Assembly (NCBI GenBank): GCA_965232515.1
Contig: CBDDPY010000002.1
Span: 2,144,001 to 2,208,000, forward strand
Reading direction: 5' to 3'
Length of the DNA stretch: 64,000 nucleotides
From: Alphaproteobacteria bacterium
GTDB lineage: Bacteria > Pseudomonadota > Alphaproteobacteria > GCA-2731375
Position numbers and translations under genes: made by a program
Shown: positions 2,581-23,982 of the stretch, one piece after another
Layout: each line of letters starts with the position of its first letter
Numbering within the stretch: position 1 is the first letter of the stretch
Notes under the pieces: model-generated
Databases searched by the model: none
Seen by the model: only the letters and a program-made list of their open reading frames with translations
What the model was told of the DNA's origin: nothing

Positions 2581-3700
2581 CGATATACGAGAAGAAAATG
2601 GAGAACAGCGCGTCGACGACGATAACCAGGAAGATCGACGTCACCACCGCCTTGGTCGTCTGCTGACCGACGCTCTCGGCGCTGCCGGAAACGCGCATGC
2701 CCTCGAGGCAGCCGACCATGGCGATCAGGAATCCGAACACCGGCGCCTTGATGATGCCGACCCAGAAGCTCCAGATTCCGACCGCGTCGCGCAGGCGGTC
2801 GATGTAGAGCCCCGGCGAGATATCGAGCACCAGCCAGGCCATGATGCCGCCGCCGAGCAGCCCCATCAGGTCGGCCCAGAAGGCCAGGATCGGCAGCATG
2901 ATGACGAGCGCCAGCACCCGCGGCAGCACCAGCACCTCGACCGGATCGAGGCCGAGCGTGCGCATGGCGTCGACCTCCTCATGCACCACCATGGAGCCGA
3001 GCTGCGCGGCGAAAGCGCTGCCGGAACGGCCGGCGACGACGATGGCGGTCAGCAGGATGCCGATCTCGCGCAGCACCGACACGCCGATCAGGTTGACCAC
3101 GAAGATCTCGGCGCCGAACCGCTGCAGCTGAACGGCGCCCTGATAGGCCAGCACGACGCCGATCAGGAACGAGATCAGCCCGACGATGGGCAGCGCGTTC
3201 ACGCCGACCTGTTCCATGTGATAGACGAGCGGCGTGCCCCGCAGCCGGCGGGGCTGAACAATCGTGCGCGCCCAGGTCAGCATTATCAGCCCGAAAAAGC
3301 CCAGGACCTGGCGGGCTTCGTCCAGCACCTCGACCGTGCCCTCGCCGACACGGTTGACGCAGGCGACCAGCGCGTTGACGCGCGGCGGCGCGACCTCGCA
3401 CGGCTGATCGTTGGCCGCGACCTGCTCCAACATGACCCGGAAGTCGGGCTTGACCGCCCGCGTCTCGGCCTTCATCCCAGCCTGGCGCATATCGCGCAGC
3501 GTGCGGTGGATCAGCCAGGCGCCGGCGGTATCGAGGCGCTCGACGCCGGCGAGGTCCATGGTCAGCGGCGCCCGGTCACGGGGCGCAAGACCGCGGAGTT
3601 CGGCGTCCAGTCGCGCGATGCTGCCGACGTCCCAGACGCCGCCAGCCTGTAGCAACAAGCCACCGTCGCGCTCCGACGTCTTCAACCAACCTGACTGCAT
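2573..3700 (-). CDS. mlaE: MlaE permease with N-terminal STAS-like domain
   Basis: DLAGVERLDTAGA STAS-like motif, GRSGSAFAAQLG, EEVDAMRTLG; start uncertain (3700-3757). Confidence 0.9.
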   Translation of the reverse strand: MQSGWLKTSERDGGLLLQAGGVWDVGSIARLDAELRGLAPRDRAPLTMDLAGVERLDTAGAWLIHRTLRDMRQAGMKAETRAVKPDFRVMLEQVAANDQPCEVAPPRVNALVACVNRVGEGTVEVLDEARQVLGFFGLIMLTWARTIVQPRRLRGTPLVYHMEQVGVNALPIVGLISFLIGVVLAYQGAVQLQRFGAEIFVVNLIGVSVLREIGILLTAIVVAGRSGSAFAAQLGSMVVHEEVDAMRTLGLDPVEVLVLPRVLALVIMLPILAFWADLMGLLGGGIMAWLVLDISPGLYIDRLRDAVGIWSFWVGIIKAPVFGFLIAMVGCLEGMRVSGSAESVGQQTTKAVVTSIFLVIVVDALFSIFFSYIGV

Positions 3701-17699: not shown

Positions 17700-19967
17700 A
17701 TGATCTCGCTGCGACGATTGCGGCGCTATGTCGTTTACCTGCTGCCGCTCATCGTGTTGACGACGGGCGTCGTGCTGTATCGCGAACAGCCGCAATTCCT
17801 GCAGATCTTTCAACTCAAGCTGTTCGACCTCTACCAACAGATCCAGCCGCGCGAATATGAACCGGCGCCGGTCAAGGTCATCGACATGGACGACGCCAGC
17901 CTGGCCCGGATCGGCCAGTGGCCCTGGCCGCGAAACAAGCTGGCCGACATGCTGATCGTGCTGTTCGAGGCCGGCGCGGCGGTCGTCGCGTTCGATGCCG
18001 TGTTCGCCGAACCGGACCGGACCTCGCCTGACGAGATCCTGCCGGTATGGTTGAACGTCCCTTCCCTGGACGCCGGCCAGTTGCCGCCGGAATGGCAGGA
18101 ATTCTCGCAAGCCATCCTGCAATCGGTGCCCGACCATGACGAGCTGTTCGCCGAGGTGATCGCGCAGACGAATGTCGTACTCGGCGTGCCGTTCACGGAC
18201 GACAGCGGCGGACGACCACCGACCGTGAAGGCGGGATTTGCCACGGCCGGCGACGACGATCCGCTGGAATTCGTGCCGAGCTTTGAAAGCGTCACGCCAA
18301 ATCTACCGCAGCTCGAGGCGGACGCGGCGGGCATCGGCAGCTTTACCTTCACCCCGGACGCGGACAGCATCGTTCGTCATGTCCCGTTGATCATGCGTGT
18401 CGGCGACAATCTGGTTCCGTCACTCGCCGCCGAGGCGCTTCGTGTGGCGCAGGGCGCCCGGAGCTATGTGATCAAGACCGGCGGCGCCAATATGGAGACG
18501 AACTACGGTGAAGCCAGCGGCCTGAACCACGTCAAGATCGGCCACGCCGATGCCGTGCCCGTCGACGAGGCCGGTAAGATGTGGGTGCACTACACCCGCG
18601 ATGTTCCCGGGCGCGTGATTCCGGCCTGGAAAATCTTTGAAGCGGACTTCGATCCCAGTCTGGTCGAGGGCCAGATCCTGTTCTTCGGCACCAGCGCCGC
18701 CGGCCTGAAGGATCTGCGCACGACGCCGCTGAATCCGGCCGAAGCCGGCGTCATGGTCCACGCACAGGTCGCCGAACAGATGATCCTCGGCCATTTCCTG
18801 GAGCGGCCGGACTGGGCATTCGGCGTCGAATTCACGTTTATCCTGGCCTTGGGATTGATACTGATCGTGGTAACGCCGCGGGTCGGCGCGTTGGCCGCGG
18901 CGGCGATCGGCGCCGGCGCCGTGGCGTTCGCCATGGGCGTGTCGTGGTATCTCTACACCGACCAACGGCTGTTGCTGGACCCGCTCTATCCGGCGATCGT
19001 CACGGTCGCCGTCTACATCGGCAGCTCGCTGCTGAGCTATTTGCAGACCGAGGCGGAAAAGCGTCAGGTGCGCGGCGCCTTCAGCCAGTATCTCTCGCCG
19101 GCACTGGTGGAACAGCTGGCCCGGGAACCGGATCTGTTGAAGCTGGGCGGCGAGCTACGGGAAATGACGTTCCTGTTCTGCGACGTCCGCGGCTTCACCA
19201 CGATCTCGGAAGGATTCAAGGGCGATCCGCAGGGCCTGACCAAGCTGATCAACCGTTTCCTGACACCGATGACGGACGCCATCCTGGCCCGCGGCGGCAC
19301 CATCGACAAATACATGGGCGACTGCATCATGGCGTTCTGGAACGCCCCGCTGGACGATAAGCAACATGCCGATCATGCCTGTGACGCGGCGCTCGCCATG
19401 TTCGAGGAACTGGGCAAACTCAACGCGGAGTTGGTCGCCGAAGCCGAGGCCGAAGGACGCGCGTCGGCGCCGCTGAATATCGGCATCGGCCTGAACACGG
19501 GCGACTGCGTGGTCGGCAACATGGGCTCGCAACAGCGCTTCGACTATTCGGTCCTGGGCGACGCCGTCAACCTCGCCTCGCGCCTGGAGGGCCAATCGAA
19601 AAACTACGGCGTCGGCGTCGTCATCGGCGACGACACGCGCCAGCGCGCGAACGGCTTCGCCACCATCGAGCTCGACCTGATAGCCGTGAAAGGCAAACAG
19701 GAGGCGGCGAAGATCCACGCGCTGCTGGGCGACGAGAAGATGACGCACGACGCTCGGTTCACCGAGTTGAGCGACAAGCATGCGCGTATGCTGTCGGCCT
19801 ATCGCGATCAACACTGGGACGAAGCCGAAACGCTGCTCGGCGAATGCCGTGCGCTCGACGGCGCCTTGGAGGTGCTGTACGACCTCTATGAAGAACGCAT
19901 CGAGTATTACCAGGAGAACCCGCCCGGCCCCGACTGGGACGGGGTCTTCGTGGCCACCAGCAAATAG
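17700..19967 (+). CDS. CHASE2-domain class III adenylate/guanylate cyclase
   Basis: GQWPWPR CHASE2 motif, 3 TMs, FCDVRGFT, IDKYMGDC, GDAVNLASRLEG. Confidence 0.93.
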   Translation: MISLRRLRRYVVYLLPLIVLTTGVVLYREQPQFLQIFQLKLFDLYQQIQPREYEPAPVKVIDMDDASLARIGQWPWPRNKLADMLIVLFEAGAAVVAFDAVFAEPDRTSPDEILPVWLNVPSLDAGQLPPEWQEFSQAILQSVPDHDELFAEVIAQTNVVLGVPFTDDSGGRPPTVKAGFATAGDDDPLEFVPSFESVTPNLPQLEADAAGIGSFTFTPDADSIVRHVPLIMRVGDNLVPSLAAEALRVAQGARSYVIKTGGANMETNYGEASGLNHVKIGHADAVPVDEAGKMWVHYTRDVPGRVIPAWKIFEADFDPSLVEGQILFFGTSAAGLKDLRTTPLNPAEAGVMVHAQVAEQMILGHFLERPDWAFGVEFTFILALGLILIVVTPRVGALAAAAIGAGAVAFAMGVSWYLYTDQRLLLDPLYPAIVTVAVYIGSSLLSYLQTEAEKRQVRGAFSQYLSPALVEQLAREPDLLKLGGELREMTFLFCDVRGFTTISEGFKGDPQGLTKLINRFLTPMTDAILARGGTIDKYMGDCIMAFWNAPLDDKQHADHACDAALAMFEELGKLNAELVAEAEAEGRASAPLNIGIGLNTGDCVVGNMGSQQRFDYSVLGDAVNLASRLEGQSKNYGVGVVIGDDTRQRANGFATIELDLIAVKGKQEAAKIHALLGDEKMTHDARFTELSDKHARMLSAYRDQHWDEAETLLGECRALDGALEVLYDLYEERIEYYQENPPGPDWDGVFVATSK

Positions 19968-20103
19968 CGCGCGCCGCGCGGCAAGCTGCCGACGACGACA
20001 ATTGACACGCCGGTCGCGAATTCGTGGCTGGGACACGAACCGACATTCGGATAGCCTTGTCGGGAACCAACGACATGCCGTTGGCGGCACGGAGAGACGT
20101 TCG

Positions 20104-21120
20104 ATGCGCGTTCAACGCCTGATAAGCCCGGTTGCCAGCGTTGCTTTCGCGCTGCTGTTCAACCTGGTCGCTGCGGTCGCACCGGCAATGGCCGACACCG
20201 CGCCTTTCGATCTCAACGACACCGTCAAGGCTGTCGTCAAGGTGACCGCCGAGGTTCCGGCGGACGCCCGCACAGCCGCGTTCCTCGGCACGGAACGCGA
20301 AGGCAACGGCGTCGTCATCGACGACGATGGGCTGGTGCTGACCATCGGCTACCTGATCCTTGAGGCGATGTCGGCGAACGTCGCCAATGCCGCCGGCGAG
20401 ATGGTGCCGGCGGAAATCATCGCCTACGACTATGACACCGGATTCGGCCTGCTGCGCGCGCTGGACCCGCTCGATATCGAACCGCTCCGGCTGGGCAGCG
20501 CCGGTGAGCTCAAGGAACGCGATCCGGTCCTGGTGGTCGGCAACGGGGGCCAGGAGGCGACGATCGGCGCCTTCGTCGTCTCCCGCCGTGAATTTGCCGG
20601 ATACTGGGAGTATTTGCTGGACAGCGCGATCTTCACCTCGCCACCGCACCCGAATTGGGGTGGCGCGGCGCTGATCGGCCCAAACGGACGTCTGCTGGGT
20701 GTCGGCTCGCTTCTGGTGCGGGACGCGATGCCGCCGCCGGATCTGATTCCCGGCAACATGTTCGTGCCGATCGACCTGCTCAAGCCGATCCTCGGCGAAC
20801 TCCTGGAGCTCGGGCGGAGCGCCGGCAAGCCGCGGCCTTGGCTCGGCATGTTCTCGGCCGAATCGCTCGGCCGCGTCGTGGTGACGAGCGTCGCGCGCGA
20901 CGGACCGGCGGACAGCGCCGGAATCGAATCGGGCGACGTCGTGGTCAGCGTGTCAGGCGAGAATATCGAGGATATGGGCCGGCTCTACCGCAAGATCTGG
21001 TCGCTGGGCGAGGCGGGTGTGGACGTGCCGATCACCGTCCTGCGCGGCAGTCAGGCGCTGGACATCGTTGTCCGTTCGGGCGACCGCTACGACTATCTAA
21101 AGCTACGGCAGACCTACTGA
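20104..21120 (+). CDS. S1C trypsin-like + PDZ protein (catalytic residues appear substituted)
   Basis: GNGVVID..LTIGYLI, HPNWGGAAL, RPWLG, PDZ-like GPADSAG. Confidence 0.82.
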   Translation: MRVQRLISPVASVAFALLFNLVAAVAPAMADTAPFDLNDTVKAVVKVTAEVPADARTAAFLGTEREGNGVVIDDDGLVLTIGYLILEAMSANVANAAGEMVPAEIIAYDYDTGFGLLRALDPLDIEPLRLGSAGELKERDPVLVVGNGGQEATIGAFVVSRREFAGYWEYLLDSAIFTSPPHPNWGGAALIGPNGRLLGVGSLLVRDAMPPPDLIPGNMFVPIDLLKPILGELLELGRSAGKPRPWLGMFSAESLGRVVVTSVARDGPADSAGIESGDVVVSVSGENIEDMGRLYRKIWSLGEAGVDVPITVLRGSQALDIVVRSGDRYDYLKLRQTY

Positions 21121-21264
21121 CCAATCCGCGCGCCGCGTCGGGACGCGTTAGGATCGAGCCCGAATCAGGCTGAGCATCCACATACGCCACGGGTAGTGTG
21201 TCAAACGCCGTCAACCACAAAATTTAGTTGCGGGTGTCCACGCGGCCTGCTAGATGATGCAAAT

Positions 21265-22135
21265 AGTTGGGGCGTCGGGGCGCTGAAGCCGAAGCTCTAG
21301 CGTCGTGTCCCGCTAAGGACACCCCCGACACCCCAGGAGCCGGTCTCGCTCCCCACACCCGCCAGCAGCGGGCTCAGCTTACGGTCGCTTCGTGCCGTCG
21401 ACGTTCCGGGTCGTCGACCGCGCGTTGCGAGCGTTGTTTTCCGTTCGGGTTCCGGAAGCTGCCGGCAACAACTCCTCGCGAAGTTCCCGCCGGTCTCCGG
21501 CCCGCCGCGCCCGAGGGCGCGGCGTTTCGGAGAGTTCCGCTCCCGATCGACCGCCGACCGAACAGCCATCCGCCACGCCCGAGGGCATCGCAGTCGACCG
21601 TGTCCGCCGACAATCGGCTGGTCCGGATCGCGTCGCCCCTGGCGCAAACGATGTCCGAAGACTTCGTTCGACACCCTGGCCGCACGATCGGAGCGGGGTT
21701 GGATCTGCCCGACCGTTCGACGTCGCGACCCGAAGGCCACACCGTCTCGCAATCGGACGGACGTGATATCGCCCCGGAGGGTAACACCACCGCCTCGCCC
21801 CTGGCCGGCAAACACGAGGCCTGCCAGCCGGACGAAGCCCCTTCCCCAGCCGAGGCCGCTGGATCCGGTCGTACGCCCGAAGGCGTCGCGATCTGATCGT
21901 CGCTGCCCCGCCAGCGGACGGATGGGCCATGTGCCAGACCGTCCGACCGGCCCGAAGGCCAACCTTCCGATCCGACGACCGCTCCGTCCACGGAGAACGT
22001 GCCGTCCCGCATCGAAGAACTGTCAAACCCGAAGGTTCTTGGCTCTCCGACCGAAGCCTGATCGTGGGGGCGTCATGGTCGACCCCGAAGGGTTTTCCGC
22101 TTCGCCTTCTCGACCGATGCTTCGGCGCTAACGCG
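21265..22135 (-). ncRNA. Candidate large structured non-coding RNA (about 870 nt), class unassigned
   Basis: 8 CUUCGG, 3 CCUCGG and 1 CUCCGG loop motifs on the minus strand, most closing stems; G-U pairs valid only on the minus strand; nested long-range helices; AT-rich upstream region; no credible CDS. Confidence 0.65.
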
Positions 22136-22140
22136 TGCAG

Positions 22141-22300
22141 TTAGAGTATTGATGGGTGGCAGAAAGAAAACAACAAGAAAAATTGACAAAACCTAAAAAA
22201 TCTGTGAATAGTTGGAATAGAAAAACACAATCTATTCACAGTTTATCCACTAAAAAATCCACATACGATGACTTCCGGTCTTTTTTTGAATTCATGAAGC
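22141..22300. promoter_or_regulatory. AT-rich divergent promoter region with DnaA-box-like 9-mers
   Basis: TGTGAATAG 22203, CTATTCACA 22232, TTATCCACT 22243, AAATCCACA 22255; minus-strand TACTCT (-10-like) at 22143-22148. Confidence 0.45.
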
Positions 22301-22489
22301 ATCTATATAGTAGCGGCGACCGCCAAACAAACCGGATTTCCTCGGATCGATGCACGACAAATCGGTTCGACATGCCGCAATCCGGCGCTAAATGGTAGCT
22401 TGCGCCGCGCAAACGTGATTGTTAGACCAACCGATGCCGCGCATTGCCCGGTTCGCAACGCGAATCGTCCTATCTGCCGGGAGTCCCGC

Positions 22490-23110
22490 ATGCTATCCCG
22501 CCGCACATTTTTCCTCAGTCCTCTCGCTGTCGGATTGCTGCCGGCGACGGCCAAGGCGGAGGCTTCCGCCGAAGCCGTGAACGGCGCCAGCCAGTTCATA
22601 CAATGGCTTGCCGACCAGGCCATTGCGGTGCTGGGCGCAAGCAACTCGACACTGGAGACGCGGGAGGCGGAGTTCCGCCGGTTGCTGGGACAGGGATTTG
22701 CCCTGCCGTTCATCAGCCGGTTCGTTTTGGGCCGCTACTGGCGGACCACGACCCCAGAGCAGCGAGAGGACTATCAGGAGCTGTTCGCCGAGTACATCCT
22801 GCGAACCTATTCGAACCGCCTTGGCGGCTATGCCGGGGAGACCTTCAAGGTCACCGGGGCCCGCCCCGCCGGCAAACAGGACATTCTGGTCGCCACGCGG
22901 ATCGATCGTCCCAGCGGTCCGCCGATCAAGGCGGACTGGCGCGTTCGCATCTTCGACAACGAATACAAGATCATCGATATCATGGTCGAAGGCGTCAGCA
23001 TGGCCGTGACCCAACGGTCGGAATTCACCAATGTTGTCCGCAGCCAGGGTATCGACGGCCTGCTGCAGGCCCTGCGCGCGCGCACCGAGCGGATGCCGGC
23101 GACATCGTGA
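22490..23110 (+). CDS. mlaC: MlaC/Ttg2D phospholipid-binding protein
   Basis: RRTFF Tat-like leader, ISRFVLGRYWR, KIIDIMVEGVSM..QRSEF. Confidence 0.9.
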   Translation: MLSRRTFFLSPLAVGLLPATAKAEASAEAVNGASQFIQWLADQAIAVLGASNSTLETREAEFRRLLGQGFALPFISRFVLGRYWRTTTPEQREDYQELFAEYILRTYSNRLGGYAGETFKVTGARPAGKQDILVATRIDRPSGPPIKADWRVRIFDNEYKIIDIMVEGVSMAVTQRSEFTNVVRSQGIDGLLQALRARTERMPATS

Positions 23111-23139
23111 CCATCGAGCGACAAAGGAATCGTACCGCC

Positions 23140-23982
23140 ATGCCTCTGTTGCACTTTGACCCCGATAGCGACCGCCCACGGCGGGCCGCGCTGGCTTCGC
23201 TGGCGATCGCGGCGGCGCTGCTGGCGACGACACCGTCATTGGCCGACATCGCGGCCGGCTACGAAGCCTATCAGCGCGGGGATTTCGCCGCCGCGCTCTC
23301 GGAATGGCGACCGCTGGCCGAAGCCGGCAATTCGCGGGCGCAGTACAATCTCGGGATCCTGTATGACGAAGGCCGCGGGGTCGCACGCGACCGCGGCCAA
23401 GCCATCGCCTGGTGGGAGAAGGCGGCGAAACAGGACTACGCCCCGGCACAGCACAATCTGGCCAGTCTGTATATTGGTGGCGACGGCGTCGTCCAGGATT
23501 ACGCGAAAGCAGTTACCTGGCTGCAACGCGCCGCCGACAATGGCTTGGCCCGGGCCCAGTATACGCTCGGAAAAATGTTCTACGACGGTCTCGGAATCCC
23601 GGCCGACCGCACGGCATCGGCCCGCTATTATCGCCTGGCTGCGGACCAGGGCCTGGCCCGGGCCCAATACAATCTGGGCAAGCTCTATCGCGACGGCGAC
23701 GGGGTCGAGCAGAGCGACGCGGAGTCGGTCAGATGGTTCGCGTTGGCGGCGCGCCAGGGCTATGCGAAGGCGCAGAACCACCTGGGCACCCGATACGCAC
23801 GCGGCATCGGCGTCAATCGCGACGACGTGCAGGCCTACAAGTGGGCAGCGCTCGCGGCCCGGCAAGGCCATGCCGCGGCGAACGAGAACCTCAAGGTTCT
23901 GCGCGGCCGCATGACGTCCGCAGACATCGAGAAGGCCGAAGCCCTGATCGCCGCCTTCCGGCCGGAACGCAAACGCGAATAG
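23140..23982 (+). CDS. Sel1-repeat (TPR-like) exported protein
   Basis: Repeated AQYNLG.LY..G.GV..D...A..W...AA.QG units. Confidence 0.92.
   Translation: MPLLHFDPDSDRPRRAALASLAIAAALLATTPSLADIAAGYEAYQRGDFAAALSEWRPLAEAGNSRAQYNLGILYDEGRGVARDRGQAIAWWEKAAKQDYAPAQHNLASLYIGGDGVVQDYAKAVTWLQRAADNGLARAQYTLGKMFYDGLGIPADRTASARYYRLAADQGLARAQYNLGKLYRDGDGVEQSDAESVRWFALAARQGYAKAQNHLGTRYARGIGVNRDDVQAYKWAALAARQGHAAANENLKVLRGRMTSADIEKAEALIAAFRPERKRE

Follow-up and report, generated by a model that had tools for sequence, protein, structure and literature searches.

Evidence for a large UUCG-rich non-coding RNA gene in an alphaproteobacterium and for a family of related RNAs

What occupies the 1369-nt gap between two plus-strand genes, a protease gene (stop at 21120) and mlaC (start at 22490), in a 64,000-nt stretch of an alphaproteobacterial genome (contig CBDDPY010000002.1, positions 2,144,001 to 2,208,000; hereafter the window)? 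The gap holds an element rich in UUCG motifs, for which a sequence-only reading had proposed a stand-alone, structured non-coding RNA (ncRNA), possibly of a new class, on the minus strand of 21265-22135. Our analysis leads to the view that 21265-22140 on the minus strand is, with high probability, an independent gene for a large, stable and abundant ncRNA and the local member of an alphaproteobacterial RNA family of about 620-1310 nt. The family matches no Rfam family, and we found no description of it in the literature. All coordinates are positions within the window unless a genome contig is named; the genome to which the window belongs (G000, 7.39 Mb) is referred to as the own genome.

The element stands out by its motif content. 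CCGAAG, which reads CUUCGG on the minus strand, the sequence of the unusually stable cUUCGg tetraloop, occurs eight times within 21265-22135 and its complement CTTCGG once (22120); CCGAGG is found three times (21511, 21579, 21850) and CCGGAG once (21774). The counts of the sequence-only reading and its places for CCGAAG were reproduced exactly in this recount. Genome-wide, CCGAAG has a density of 0.53 per kb per strand, equivalent to about 0.46 expected occurrences per 871 nt, and the element is the densest 900-nt window for this motif on either strand of the whole 7.39-Mb genome (8 occurrences; the runners-up have 7 and 7).

The element is transcribed. A word index lists 24 sequencing runs, of which 12 contain at least half of the element's words and 11 are recorded as RNA, from nine studies, comprising marine, coral and sediment metatranscriptomes as well as labelled organisms. 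We mapped four runs (X3, X7, X8, X23) onto 20700-23100. In X3 the element is represented by a single 837-nt contig (21291-22127, depth 22.9) and in the metatranscriptome X7 by a single 787-nt contig (21325-22111, depth 115.4), with depth 0 over both flanks in either run. Since the flanks are silent in X3 and X7, DNA carry-over cannot explain their contigs. X8, from a slightly different strain, covers the whole stretch, with a depth of 13.7 over the element and of 4.8-9.0 and 6.1-7.4 over its two sides. The element accumulates as a discrete RNA species of about 0.8 kb, and the transcript that had been predicted from the sequence appears as abundant, isolated contigs of 787-837 nt at depths of 23-115. 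We assign its transcription to the minus strand because of the unequal folding of the two strands, the strand on which the tetraloops form, the G-U pairs and the AT-rich region upstream, all described below. The 5' end would then lie near 22136-22140 and the 3' end near 21265-21291, which gives a gene body of about 876 nt (21265-22140) whose ends are approximate; besides the RNA contigs and the fold, this delimitation draws on a conserved 5' anchor at 22139 and on the lack of codon periodicity.

The predicted fold is specific to the minus strand. We compared minimum free energies (MFE) with those of 20 shuffles per strand and, as a second reference, with 164 folds of GC-matched native windows from the own genome (mean −421.6, standard deviation 21.8). 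The minus strand reaches −496.1 kcal/mol (z −7.03 against shuffles, −3.4 against native windows), the plus strand −406.1 kcal/mol (z −3.34 and +0.7, respectively), so that the folding excess anticipated for the minus strand is confined to it. The sole native window that folds equally well is a perfect DNA palindrome, alike on both strands. In the minus-strand MFE structure there are 324 pairs, 50 of them G-U; for some stems, the sequence-only reading had pointed to G-U pairs that would be C-A mismatches on the plus strand. It has 15 hairpin loops, among them seven cUUCGg, two cCUCGg, one cUCCGg and one cGCGAg; ten of the 15 are YNCG tetraloops with a C-G closing pair. Six helices are 25-29 bp long, and five hairpins have a purine-rich 3x3 or 3x4 internal loop beneath the terminal stem.

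Along the RNA, a conserved start motif with the core GCACGCG (22122-22139, minus strand, as are all features of the RNA) is followed by a 5' domain (21905-22121) with several blocks shared with relatives, for example the GCGGxxCGxCxxGUUCUCCG hairpin region. The 25-29-bp helices with their cUUCGg or cCUCGg caps make up a central variable array (21436-21998), as delimited from the MFE structure. A small hairpin, GGGAGC-loop-GCUCC (21335-21353), stands just before the 3' module (21269-21334), in which a 12-bp closing helix (21269-21280 with 21323-21334) encloses two hairpins. Every hairpin named in the sequence-only reading was recovered in the MFE structure, and this closing helix has a pair probability of 1.00; the long-range helices of the MFE structure reach just 0.62-0.67. 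Four other long-range helices that had been proposed fared worse: their arms are complementary in sequence, yet they are missing from the MFE structure and have summed pair probabilities of 0.005, 0.000, 0.46 and 1.88.

X7 and X8 differ from the window at nine positions inside the element, all of them transitions. Placed on the MFE structure, six of these keep the pair (one A-U to G-U, four G-U to A-U, one C-G to U-G), one converts an A.C mismatch to G-C and two break G-C pairs. Four of the six G-to-A changes fall on G-U pairs, in which just 50 of the 327 G residues are engaged (p ~0.006, post hoc), an enrichment that is suggestive only.

Relatives of the RNA became apparent through a simple structural signature. 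A pattern of three CTTCGG spaced 55-85 nt apart matches the own genome twice, once at this RNA and once at a coding site. Across the bacterial family, the same pattern led to non-coding, Rfam-negative loci in genus g6 that share one layout: an AT-rich block, then about 0.6-1.2 kb of GC-rich non-coding DNA whose 8-17 cUUCGg motifs are confined to a single strand. With one g6 copy as BLAST query, all 21 g6 genomes gave a match and none of the 12 other genomes did. The 18 full g6 copies measure 650-1309 nt and carry 6-19 CUUCGG in sense and 0-1 in antisense orientation. The pattern also matched a copy in genus g4 (G004) that is much closer to the window copy than the g6 copies are; the two share the start motif, the GCGGxxCGxCxxGUUCUCCG block, the GGGAGC-loop-GCUCC hairpin, which is nearly identical in g4 copies, and the 3' module. 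BLAST with this copy found it in all three g4 genomes, at lengths of 952-1240 nt. The start motif is common to the three g4 copies and one copy from outside the bacterial family, with GCACGCG invariant in alignment A9. Besides this motif, the window copy has several blocks in common with g4 and G198. In 22 of 22 copies the sense MFE lies below the antisense MFE, by 66-161 kcal/mol, and the sense structures contain 1-12 cUUCGg loops, the antisense structures none.

Profiles built from these relatives lead back to the window. A hidden Markov model (HMM) of the three g4 copies, made without the window copy, has one match in the own genome, C2:2166251-2165184 on the minus strand (E 3e-16), which is window 22251-21184 and outlines a cassette homologous to the g4 copies (21184-22251), consisting of the promoter side, the RNA and about 80 nt downstream. 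HMMs of g6 copies only, searched at E ≤ 10, gave three matches in the own genome, all at this locus, on the minus strand and collinear: 22241-22172 (E 3), 21981-21872 (E 1.8) and 21336-21262 (E 0.51). Judged by these profile matches, the window RNA is homologous to RNAs in two other genera, g4 and g6.

The relatives also allow covariation to be assessed, here in sequence-based alignments and against a shuffle control that ignores phylogeny. For the 5' domain (A5, 19 rows, 55 pairs), 93.6% of cells are paired, against 26-50% with the partners slid, and 26 of the 55 pairs have changed on both sides, compared with 12.8 ± 2.1 in shuffles (reached in 0 of 500). For the 3' domain, the proportion is 99.1% against 28-43% (A4, 19 rows, 29 pairs) and, across three genera, 96.2% against 39-57% (A6, 22 rows, 25 pairs), with 12 of the 25 pairs of A6 changed on both sides (4.6 ± 1.6 in shuffles; reached in 0 of 500). 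The closing helix, 11 bp in A6, is paired in all 22 rows and has three positions that alternate between A-U and G-C. Of the 29 pairs of the 3' consensus, 24 form in the window row, with three compensatory changes. Compensatory base changes keep the 5' and 3' domains of the family, and covarying relatives, which the sequence-only reading had made a check of its proposal, are at hand.

Candidates were found outside the bacterial family as well. A degenerate pattern describing both strands of the 3' closing helix gave matches in 47 of 401 genomes of the class, compared with 8 control matches. Of 12 class loci that we fetched, five (L250, L251, L252, L256, L258) each terminate a non-coding stretch of 0.6-1.6 kb; in each, the closing helix encloses two hairpins and the non-coding stretch lies upstream in sense orientation, the orientation being read from hairpin order. 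The remaining seven lie in coding-like sequence and were taken as chance matches. The g6 3' HMM matches L250 (E 1.5e-7), L251 (E 5.4e-7) and L256 (E 0.0047). In L250, moreover, a U-run is preceded at a distance of about 620 nt by the GCACGCG start motif, the promoter-side boxes are similar, and the fold is better in sense (−475.6, z −3.6) than in antisense orientation (−404.7, z −2.4). When the five loci are included, every one of the 16 rows forms the closing helix; an excess of YUCG was not seen in these copies. A terminator-like U-run follows the 3' module in g6 and out-of-family copies. On these few loci, the RNA class probably reaches well beyond one bacterial family.

Several results weigh against our reading. 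BLAST from the window copy recovered only bits of 28-62 nt in 40 relatives and in the whole order, which amounts to 33 genomes, three single-sequence covariance models (CMs) from the window copy, covering 469 of its 871 nt, had no match in 32 genomes of the family, and one of the three, R1, had none in 150 genomes of the class. The RNA family was not found in eight of the 33 genomes of the bacterial family (G001, G002, G003, G005, G007, G008, G009, G012); for G001, of the same genus, the assembly lacks the region, a contig ending within the cyclase gene (88% identity), and there is no orthologous protease or Sel1 gene. Each g6-HMM match to the window is individually non-significant, and in a MAFFT alignment just 27 of the 55 consensus pairs of the g6 5' domain are formed by the window row, so that the 5' domain of the window is clearly alignable only with g4. 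The out-of-family evidence comes mainly from a module of about 60 nt. As for the transcripts, X3 is classed as RNA by guess only, the flank depth of X8 (4.8-9.0) nearly equals that of the element (13.7), and in X23, the sole run of raw reads, 0 reads mapped, which has no bearing on expression. The RNA contigs carry neither strand nor true ends, and the promoter and terminator scan reported neither a promoter nor a terminator on the minus strand. Finally, the seven of nine strain variants that are compatible with the structure are no better than the ~68% expected for random transitions.

Foremost among the alternatives, and in our view unlikely, is that the RNA gene forms a cassette that is selfish or has moved recently, its structured transcript being maintained and relocated as a mobile unit that has no host function. 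It bears on the origin of the locus. The gene cluster CHASE2-cyclase, protease, mlaC, Sel1, mlaA is conserved, and the protease-mlaC gap, 1369 nt long here, measures 10-148 nt in 25 of 26 related loci, so that the 1.3 kb of the window represent a lineage-specific insertion. In the remaining related locus (G048, another genus), an insert of about 275 nt, a nested palindrome unrelated to the element, fills the gap, which is 406 nt long (L021:1100-1490); the intergenic site may be prone to insertions. Further, the context of the RNA gene differs among genera: protease and mlaC in the window, downstream of an Fe-ADH gene and on its strand in g6 (5 of 5 loci examined), and in G004 between two transposase genes, the first of IS1595 type and the second a DDE_Tnp_1 fragment (L232:451-1389 and 2834-3442). 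The cassette is also bounded by an 11-nt direct repeat (21176-21186, abutting it, and 22257-22267; both on the plus strand) whose 11-mer occurs twice in the genome, both times here, and which could be a target duplication or chance. Such a repeat within 1.2 kb is, however, not rare by chance (we estimate ~0.2-0.5 expected). The cassette also lacks terminal inverted repeats, no integrase or transposase lies within about 12 kb in the window, and it is present as a single copy in the own genome, as is the case for the 3' motif, which has one place per g6 genome. These findings agree with the sequence-only reading, for which many dispersed copies with terminal inverted repeats would have counted against an ncRNA and which had noted no adjacent reverse transcriptase, transposase or nuclease; none of the latter three was seen within about 12 kb on either side. 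Both the strong covariation and the occurrence of the RNA in all 21 g6 genomes suggest that selection acts on the RNA itself, and mobility would in any case be compatible with our explanation of what the molecule is.

Much less probable is a long untranslated region (UTR), a processed mRNA fragment or a known RNA family missed by its models. The position of the g6 RNA downstream of Fe-ADH on the same strand would fit a UTR, and the plus strand of the element, too, folds below its shuffles (z −3.3). Against this, no minus-strand gene lies upstream in the window, the flanks have a depth of 0 where the RNA has 23-115, and in g1, g4 and g6 alike the RNA is preceded by a promoter-like, AT-rich region that contains conserved boxes. 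With respect to known families, Rfam 15 at gathering thresholds had no match on either strand of the 64-kb window; its models include GOLLD, ROOL, OLE, HEARO, raiA, RNase P, transfer-messenger RNA (tmRNA), 6S and signal recognition particle (SRP) RNA as well as group I and II introns and small ribozymes. At E ≤ 10, just five weak plus-strand matches of 13-15 bits appeared in 21000-22450. There were likewise no Rfam matches in 10 g6, 3 g4 and 5 out-of-family loci, and ARAGORN found no tRNA or tmRNA gene in 20000-23500. A literature search, conducted at the level of abstracts and without supplementary files, yielded no description of such an RNA. Of the suggestion that the RNA stands alone and may form a new class, the part that concerns a separate ncRNA without an Rfam match thus holds, whereas the notion of an isolated oddity does not, since the family spans at least three genera.

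An array of repetitive extragenic palindromic (REP) sequences or bacterial interspersed mosaic elements (BIMEs), a palindrome of the kind found in miniature inverted-repeat transposable elements (MITEs), or another structure at the DNA level is more improbable still. Like these, the RNA gene fills an intergenic gap with GC-rich hairpins; the same site in G048 carries the palindromic insert mentioned above, and the own genome does hold a perfect nested palindrome (C2:4850265-4850535). The RNA gene differs from them in being strand-specific, with conserved unique ends, covariation and a promoter region of its own. No second copy of the element or of any of its hairpins exists in the own genome, and no tandem repeats were found. 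Its strands differ by 90 kcal/mol, whereas true palindromes fold alike on both, its 50 G-U pairs are C-A mismatches on the other strand, and a discrete RNA accumulates. That the stems do not form a REP array, as claimed from the sequence, is borne out by the single copy, the strand difference and the lack of terminal inverted repeats. The palindrome at C2:4850265-4850535 is itself of note as an intergenic, nearly perfect nested structure of about 270 nt, for which an 871-nt window folds to −499.9 and −494.6 on the two strands; it looks like a MITE or a bidirectional terminator.

The stretch 21100-22300 is non-coding, as follows from the absence of codon-position GC periodicity and of Pfam matches: the codon-phase GC spread is flat (0.02-0.14) across it and 0.34-0.45 in the flanking genes, and none of the element's four long frames matches Pfam. 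We therefore dismiss a gene for a disordered repeat protein as the least credible alternative: all six frames are open for 149-276 codons across the element, and six tetraloop motifs (21511, 21580, 21655, 21730, 21877, 21952) are spaced by multiples of 3 and so share one reading frame, which accounts for the PEG/PSG motifs in the translation, but in one plus frame a stop at 21894-21896 would have to be read through, the homologues vary from 650 to 1310 nt with many indels, and the strain variants in the element fall 3, 1 and 5 by codon phase, without the third-position bias of the X8 variants in the flanking genes (protease 3/3; mlaC, 22486-22885, 8/9).

Returning to the independent RNA gene, we turn to its expression and possible function. 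The AT-rich block described upstream of the RNA is present (GC 0.38 at 22100-22299), as is the TACTCT hexamer (22143-22148). Minus-strand transcription would start from a putative promoter, TTGTTT (22173-22168), 17 nt, AATACT (22150-22145), which was identified by eye and lies below the threshold of the scan; a CTTGTTT block is kept upstream of the g6 copies. The 3' module may terminate transcription or protect the 3' end. Further upstream, an AT-rich, operator-like region (22199-22267, no strand assigned) comprises the inverted pair CTGTGAATAG/CTATTCACAG together with TTTATCCAC and AAATCCACA, boxes that resemble TTATNCACA. Boxes like TTATNCACA also occur upstream of the g4, g6 and G198 copies, and the g6 upstream region holds a perfect palindrome, TGTAATA-N-TATTACA. 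The boxes resemble the DnaA-box consensus; just one is within one mismatch of it. The scan found a plus-strand promoter-like sequence, TTGACA-18-AATAGT (22183-22212), that faces mlaC, back to back with the putative promoter of the RNA, and the AT-rich spacer 22183-22267 looks like a divergent promoter region.

For the function we can offer tentative proposals only. The terminal domains might be a functional core or binding site, and the rigid, nuclease-resistant array of helices might make the RNA a long-lived protein scaffold or decoy, or a self-assembling particle; under this guess, the RNA would not be a regulator that acts by base pairing. We favor scaffold, decoy or particle over antisense regulator because of the stability and abundance of the RNA, its covarying ends, the gain and loss of whole helices in its middle part between species, and its helix-capping loops; loops of the UUCG type cap helices rather than make contacts. 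A more far-reaching and, to us, somewhat more doubtful conjecture sees here the first example of a widespread alphaproteobacterial class in which a conserved 5' core and a three-way 3' module flank an expandable bundle of cUUCGg-capped helices, a natural 'RNA origami' that would serve as particle, multimer or multivalent protein scaffold and whose transcription the conserved DnaA-box-like sites upstream would couple to the cell cycle.

Among known RNAs, GOLLD, ROOL and OLE are described as forming RNA-only homo-oligomeric complexes (PMC12286853). Like them, the window RNA is several hundred to more than 1000 nt in size, highly structured and abundant, forms its own transcription unit and has no known biochemical function. 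It differs from them in lacking an Rfam match, in its alphaproteobacterial host, in that no phage or tRNA neighborhood was seen, and in its array of long cUUCGg-capped helices, which is of variable length between conserved ends. The sponges CsrB and RsmZ are RNAs of about 100-400 nt in which GGA in hairpin loops binds CsrA or RsmA. They, too, are abundant and terminator-ended and consist of many similar hairpin modules whose number varies between species. The window RNA is 2-10 times longer, has UUCG or CUCG loops and covarying multi-helix terminal domains, and shows GGA in just one of its 15 hairpin loops (ACCCGGAA), unlike RNAs of the CsrB/RsmZ type. With 6S RNA, RNase P RNA, tmRNA and SRP RNA it has in common that it is stable, abundant and structured and forms isolated metatranscriptome contigs; it differs from them in being non-universal and very variable in length and in matching neither Rfam nor ARAGORN models.

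To our knowledge, very few classes of bacterial ncRNA exceed about 500 nt, and every one of them has raised new questions. The present candidate class brings together expression in environmental transcriptomes, covariation, 25 members and five candidate loci from other bacterial families. Its design is unusual, with a conserved core and a hairpin array of variable length saturated with the most stable tetraloop known, and its discovery shows that large RNAs can evade BLAST and single-sequence CMs and yet surface through a simple structural signature.

A number of further searches and ideas came to nothing. A scan of metagenome contigs with 20-mers gave 13 loci, each of which is a 20-22-nt match due to chance; viral contigs, scanned in this way too, as well as plasmid and phage collections had no match to the element. 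The pattern GGGAGCGNGANCNGCTCC with two mismatches was uninformative, as control matches outnumbered those of the pattern. A candidate in G002 (L230) was rejected as a family member; L230:2040-2370 (G002:C111) shows repeated REP-like hairpins, with the unit GGAGGACACUCCUUCG present twice, adjoining what by eye resembles a tRNA gene. The DnaA-box-like motifs had raised the idea of a replication origin, which we discarded since only one box is close to the consensus and the GC-skew minimum and maximum are at 5.81 and 1.38 Mb, the locus at 2.17 Mb. A decayed gene was considered also, but in two distant genomes the gene occupying the corresponding gap is without similarity to the window gap.

On either side of the RNA gene, the neighbors are transcribed from the plus strand. 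The gene for a trypsin-like protease with a PDZ domain (19780-21120, by Pfam) is convergent with the RNA, and mlaC (22490-23110, by Pfam MlaC and tblastn) is divergent from it. An open reading frame at 22444-23982 (512 aa) is not one gene, being an off-frame reading joined to the Sel1-repeat gene (23140-23982); mlaC, whose product has a Tat-like signal peptide, lies in a different frame and is shown to be the real gene by its codon-phase GC, by strain variants at third positions and by tblastn against relatives. In the stretch that separates the RNA from the protease gene, 40-60 nt downstream of the 3' module, the window and all three g4 copies have a conserved motif CAAC(A/T)AAATTTTG (21200-21225). 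The RNA contigs end short of this motif, which may be the true terminator or a site at the DNA level. Elsewhere in this genome, two small contigs, C3 (5516 nt) and C4 (10862 nt), have GC contents of 46% and 42%, compared with 65.5% for the chromosome, and could be plasmid, phage or contamination.

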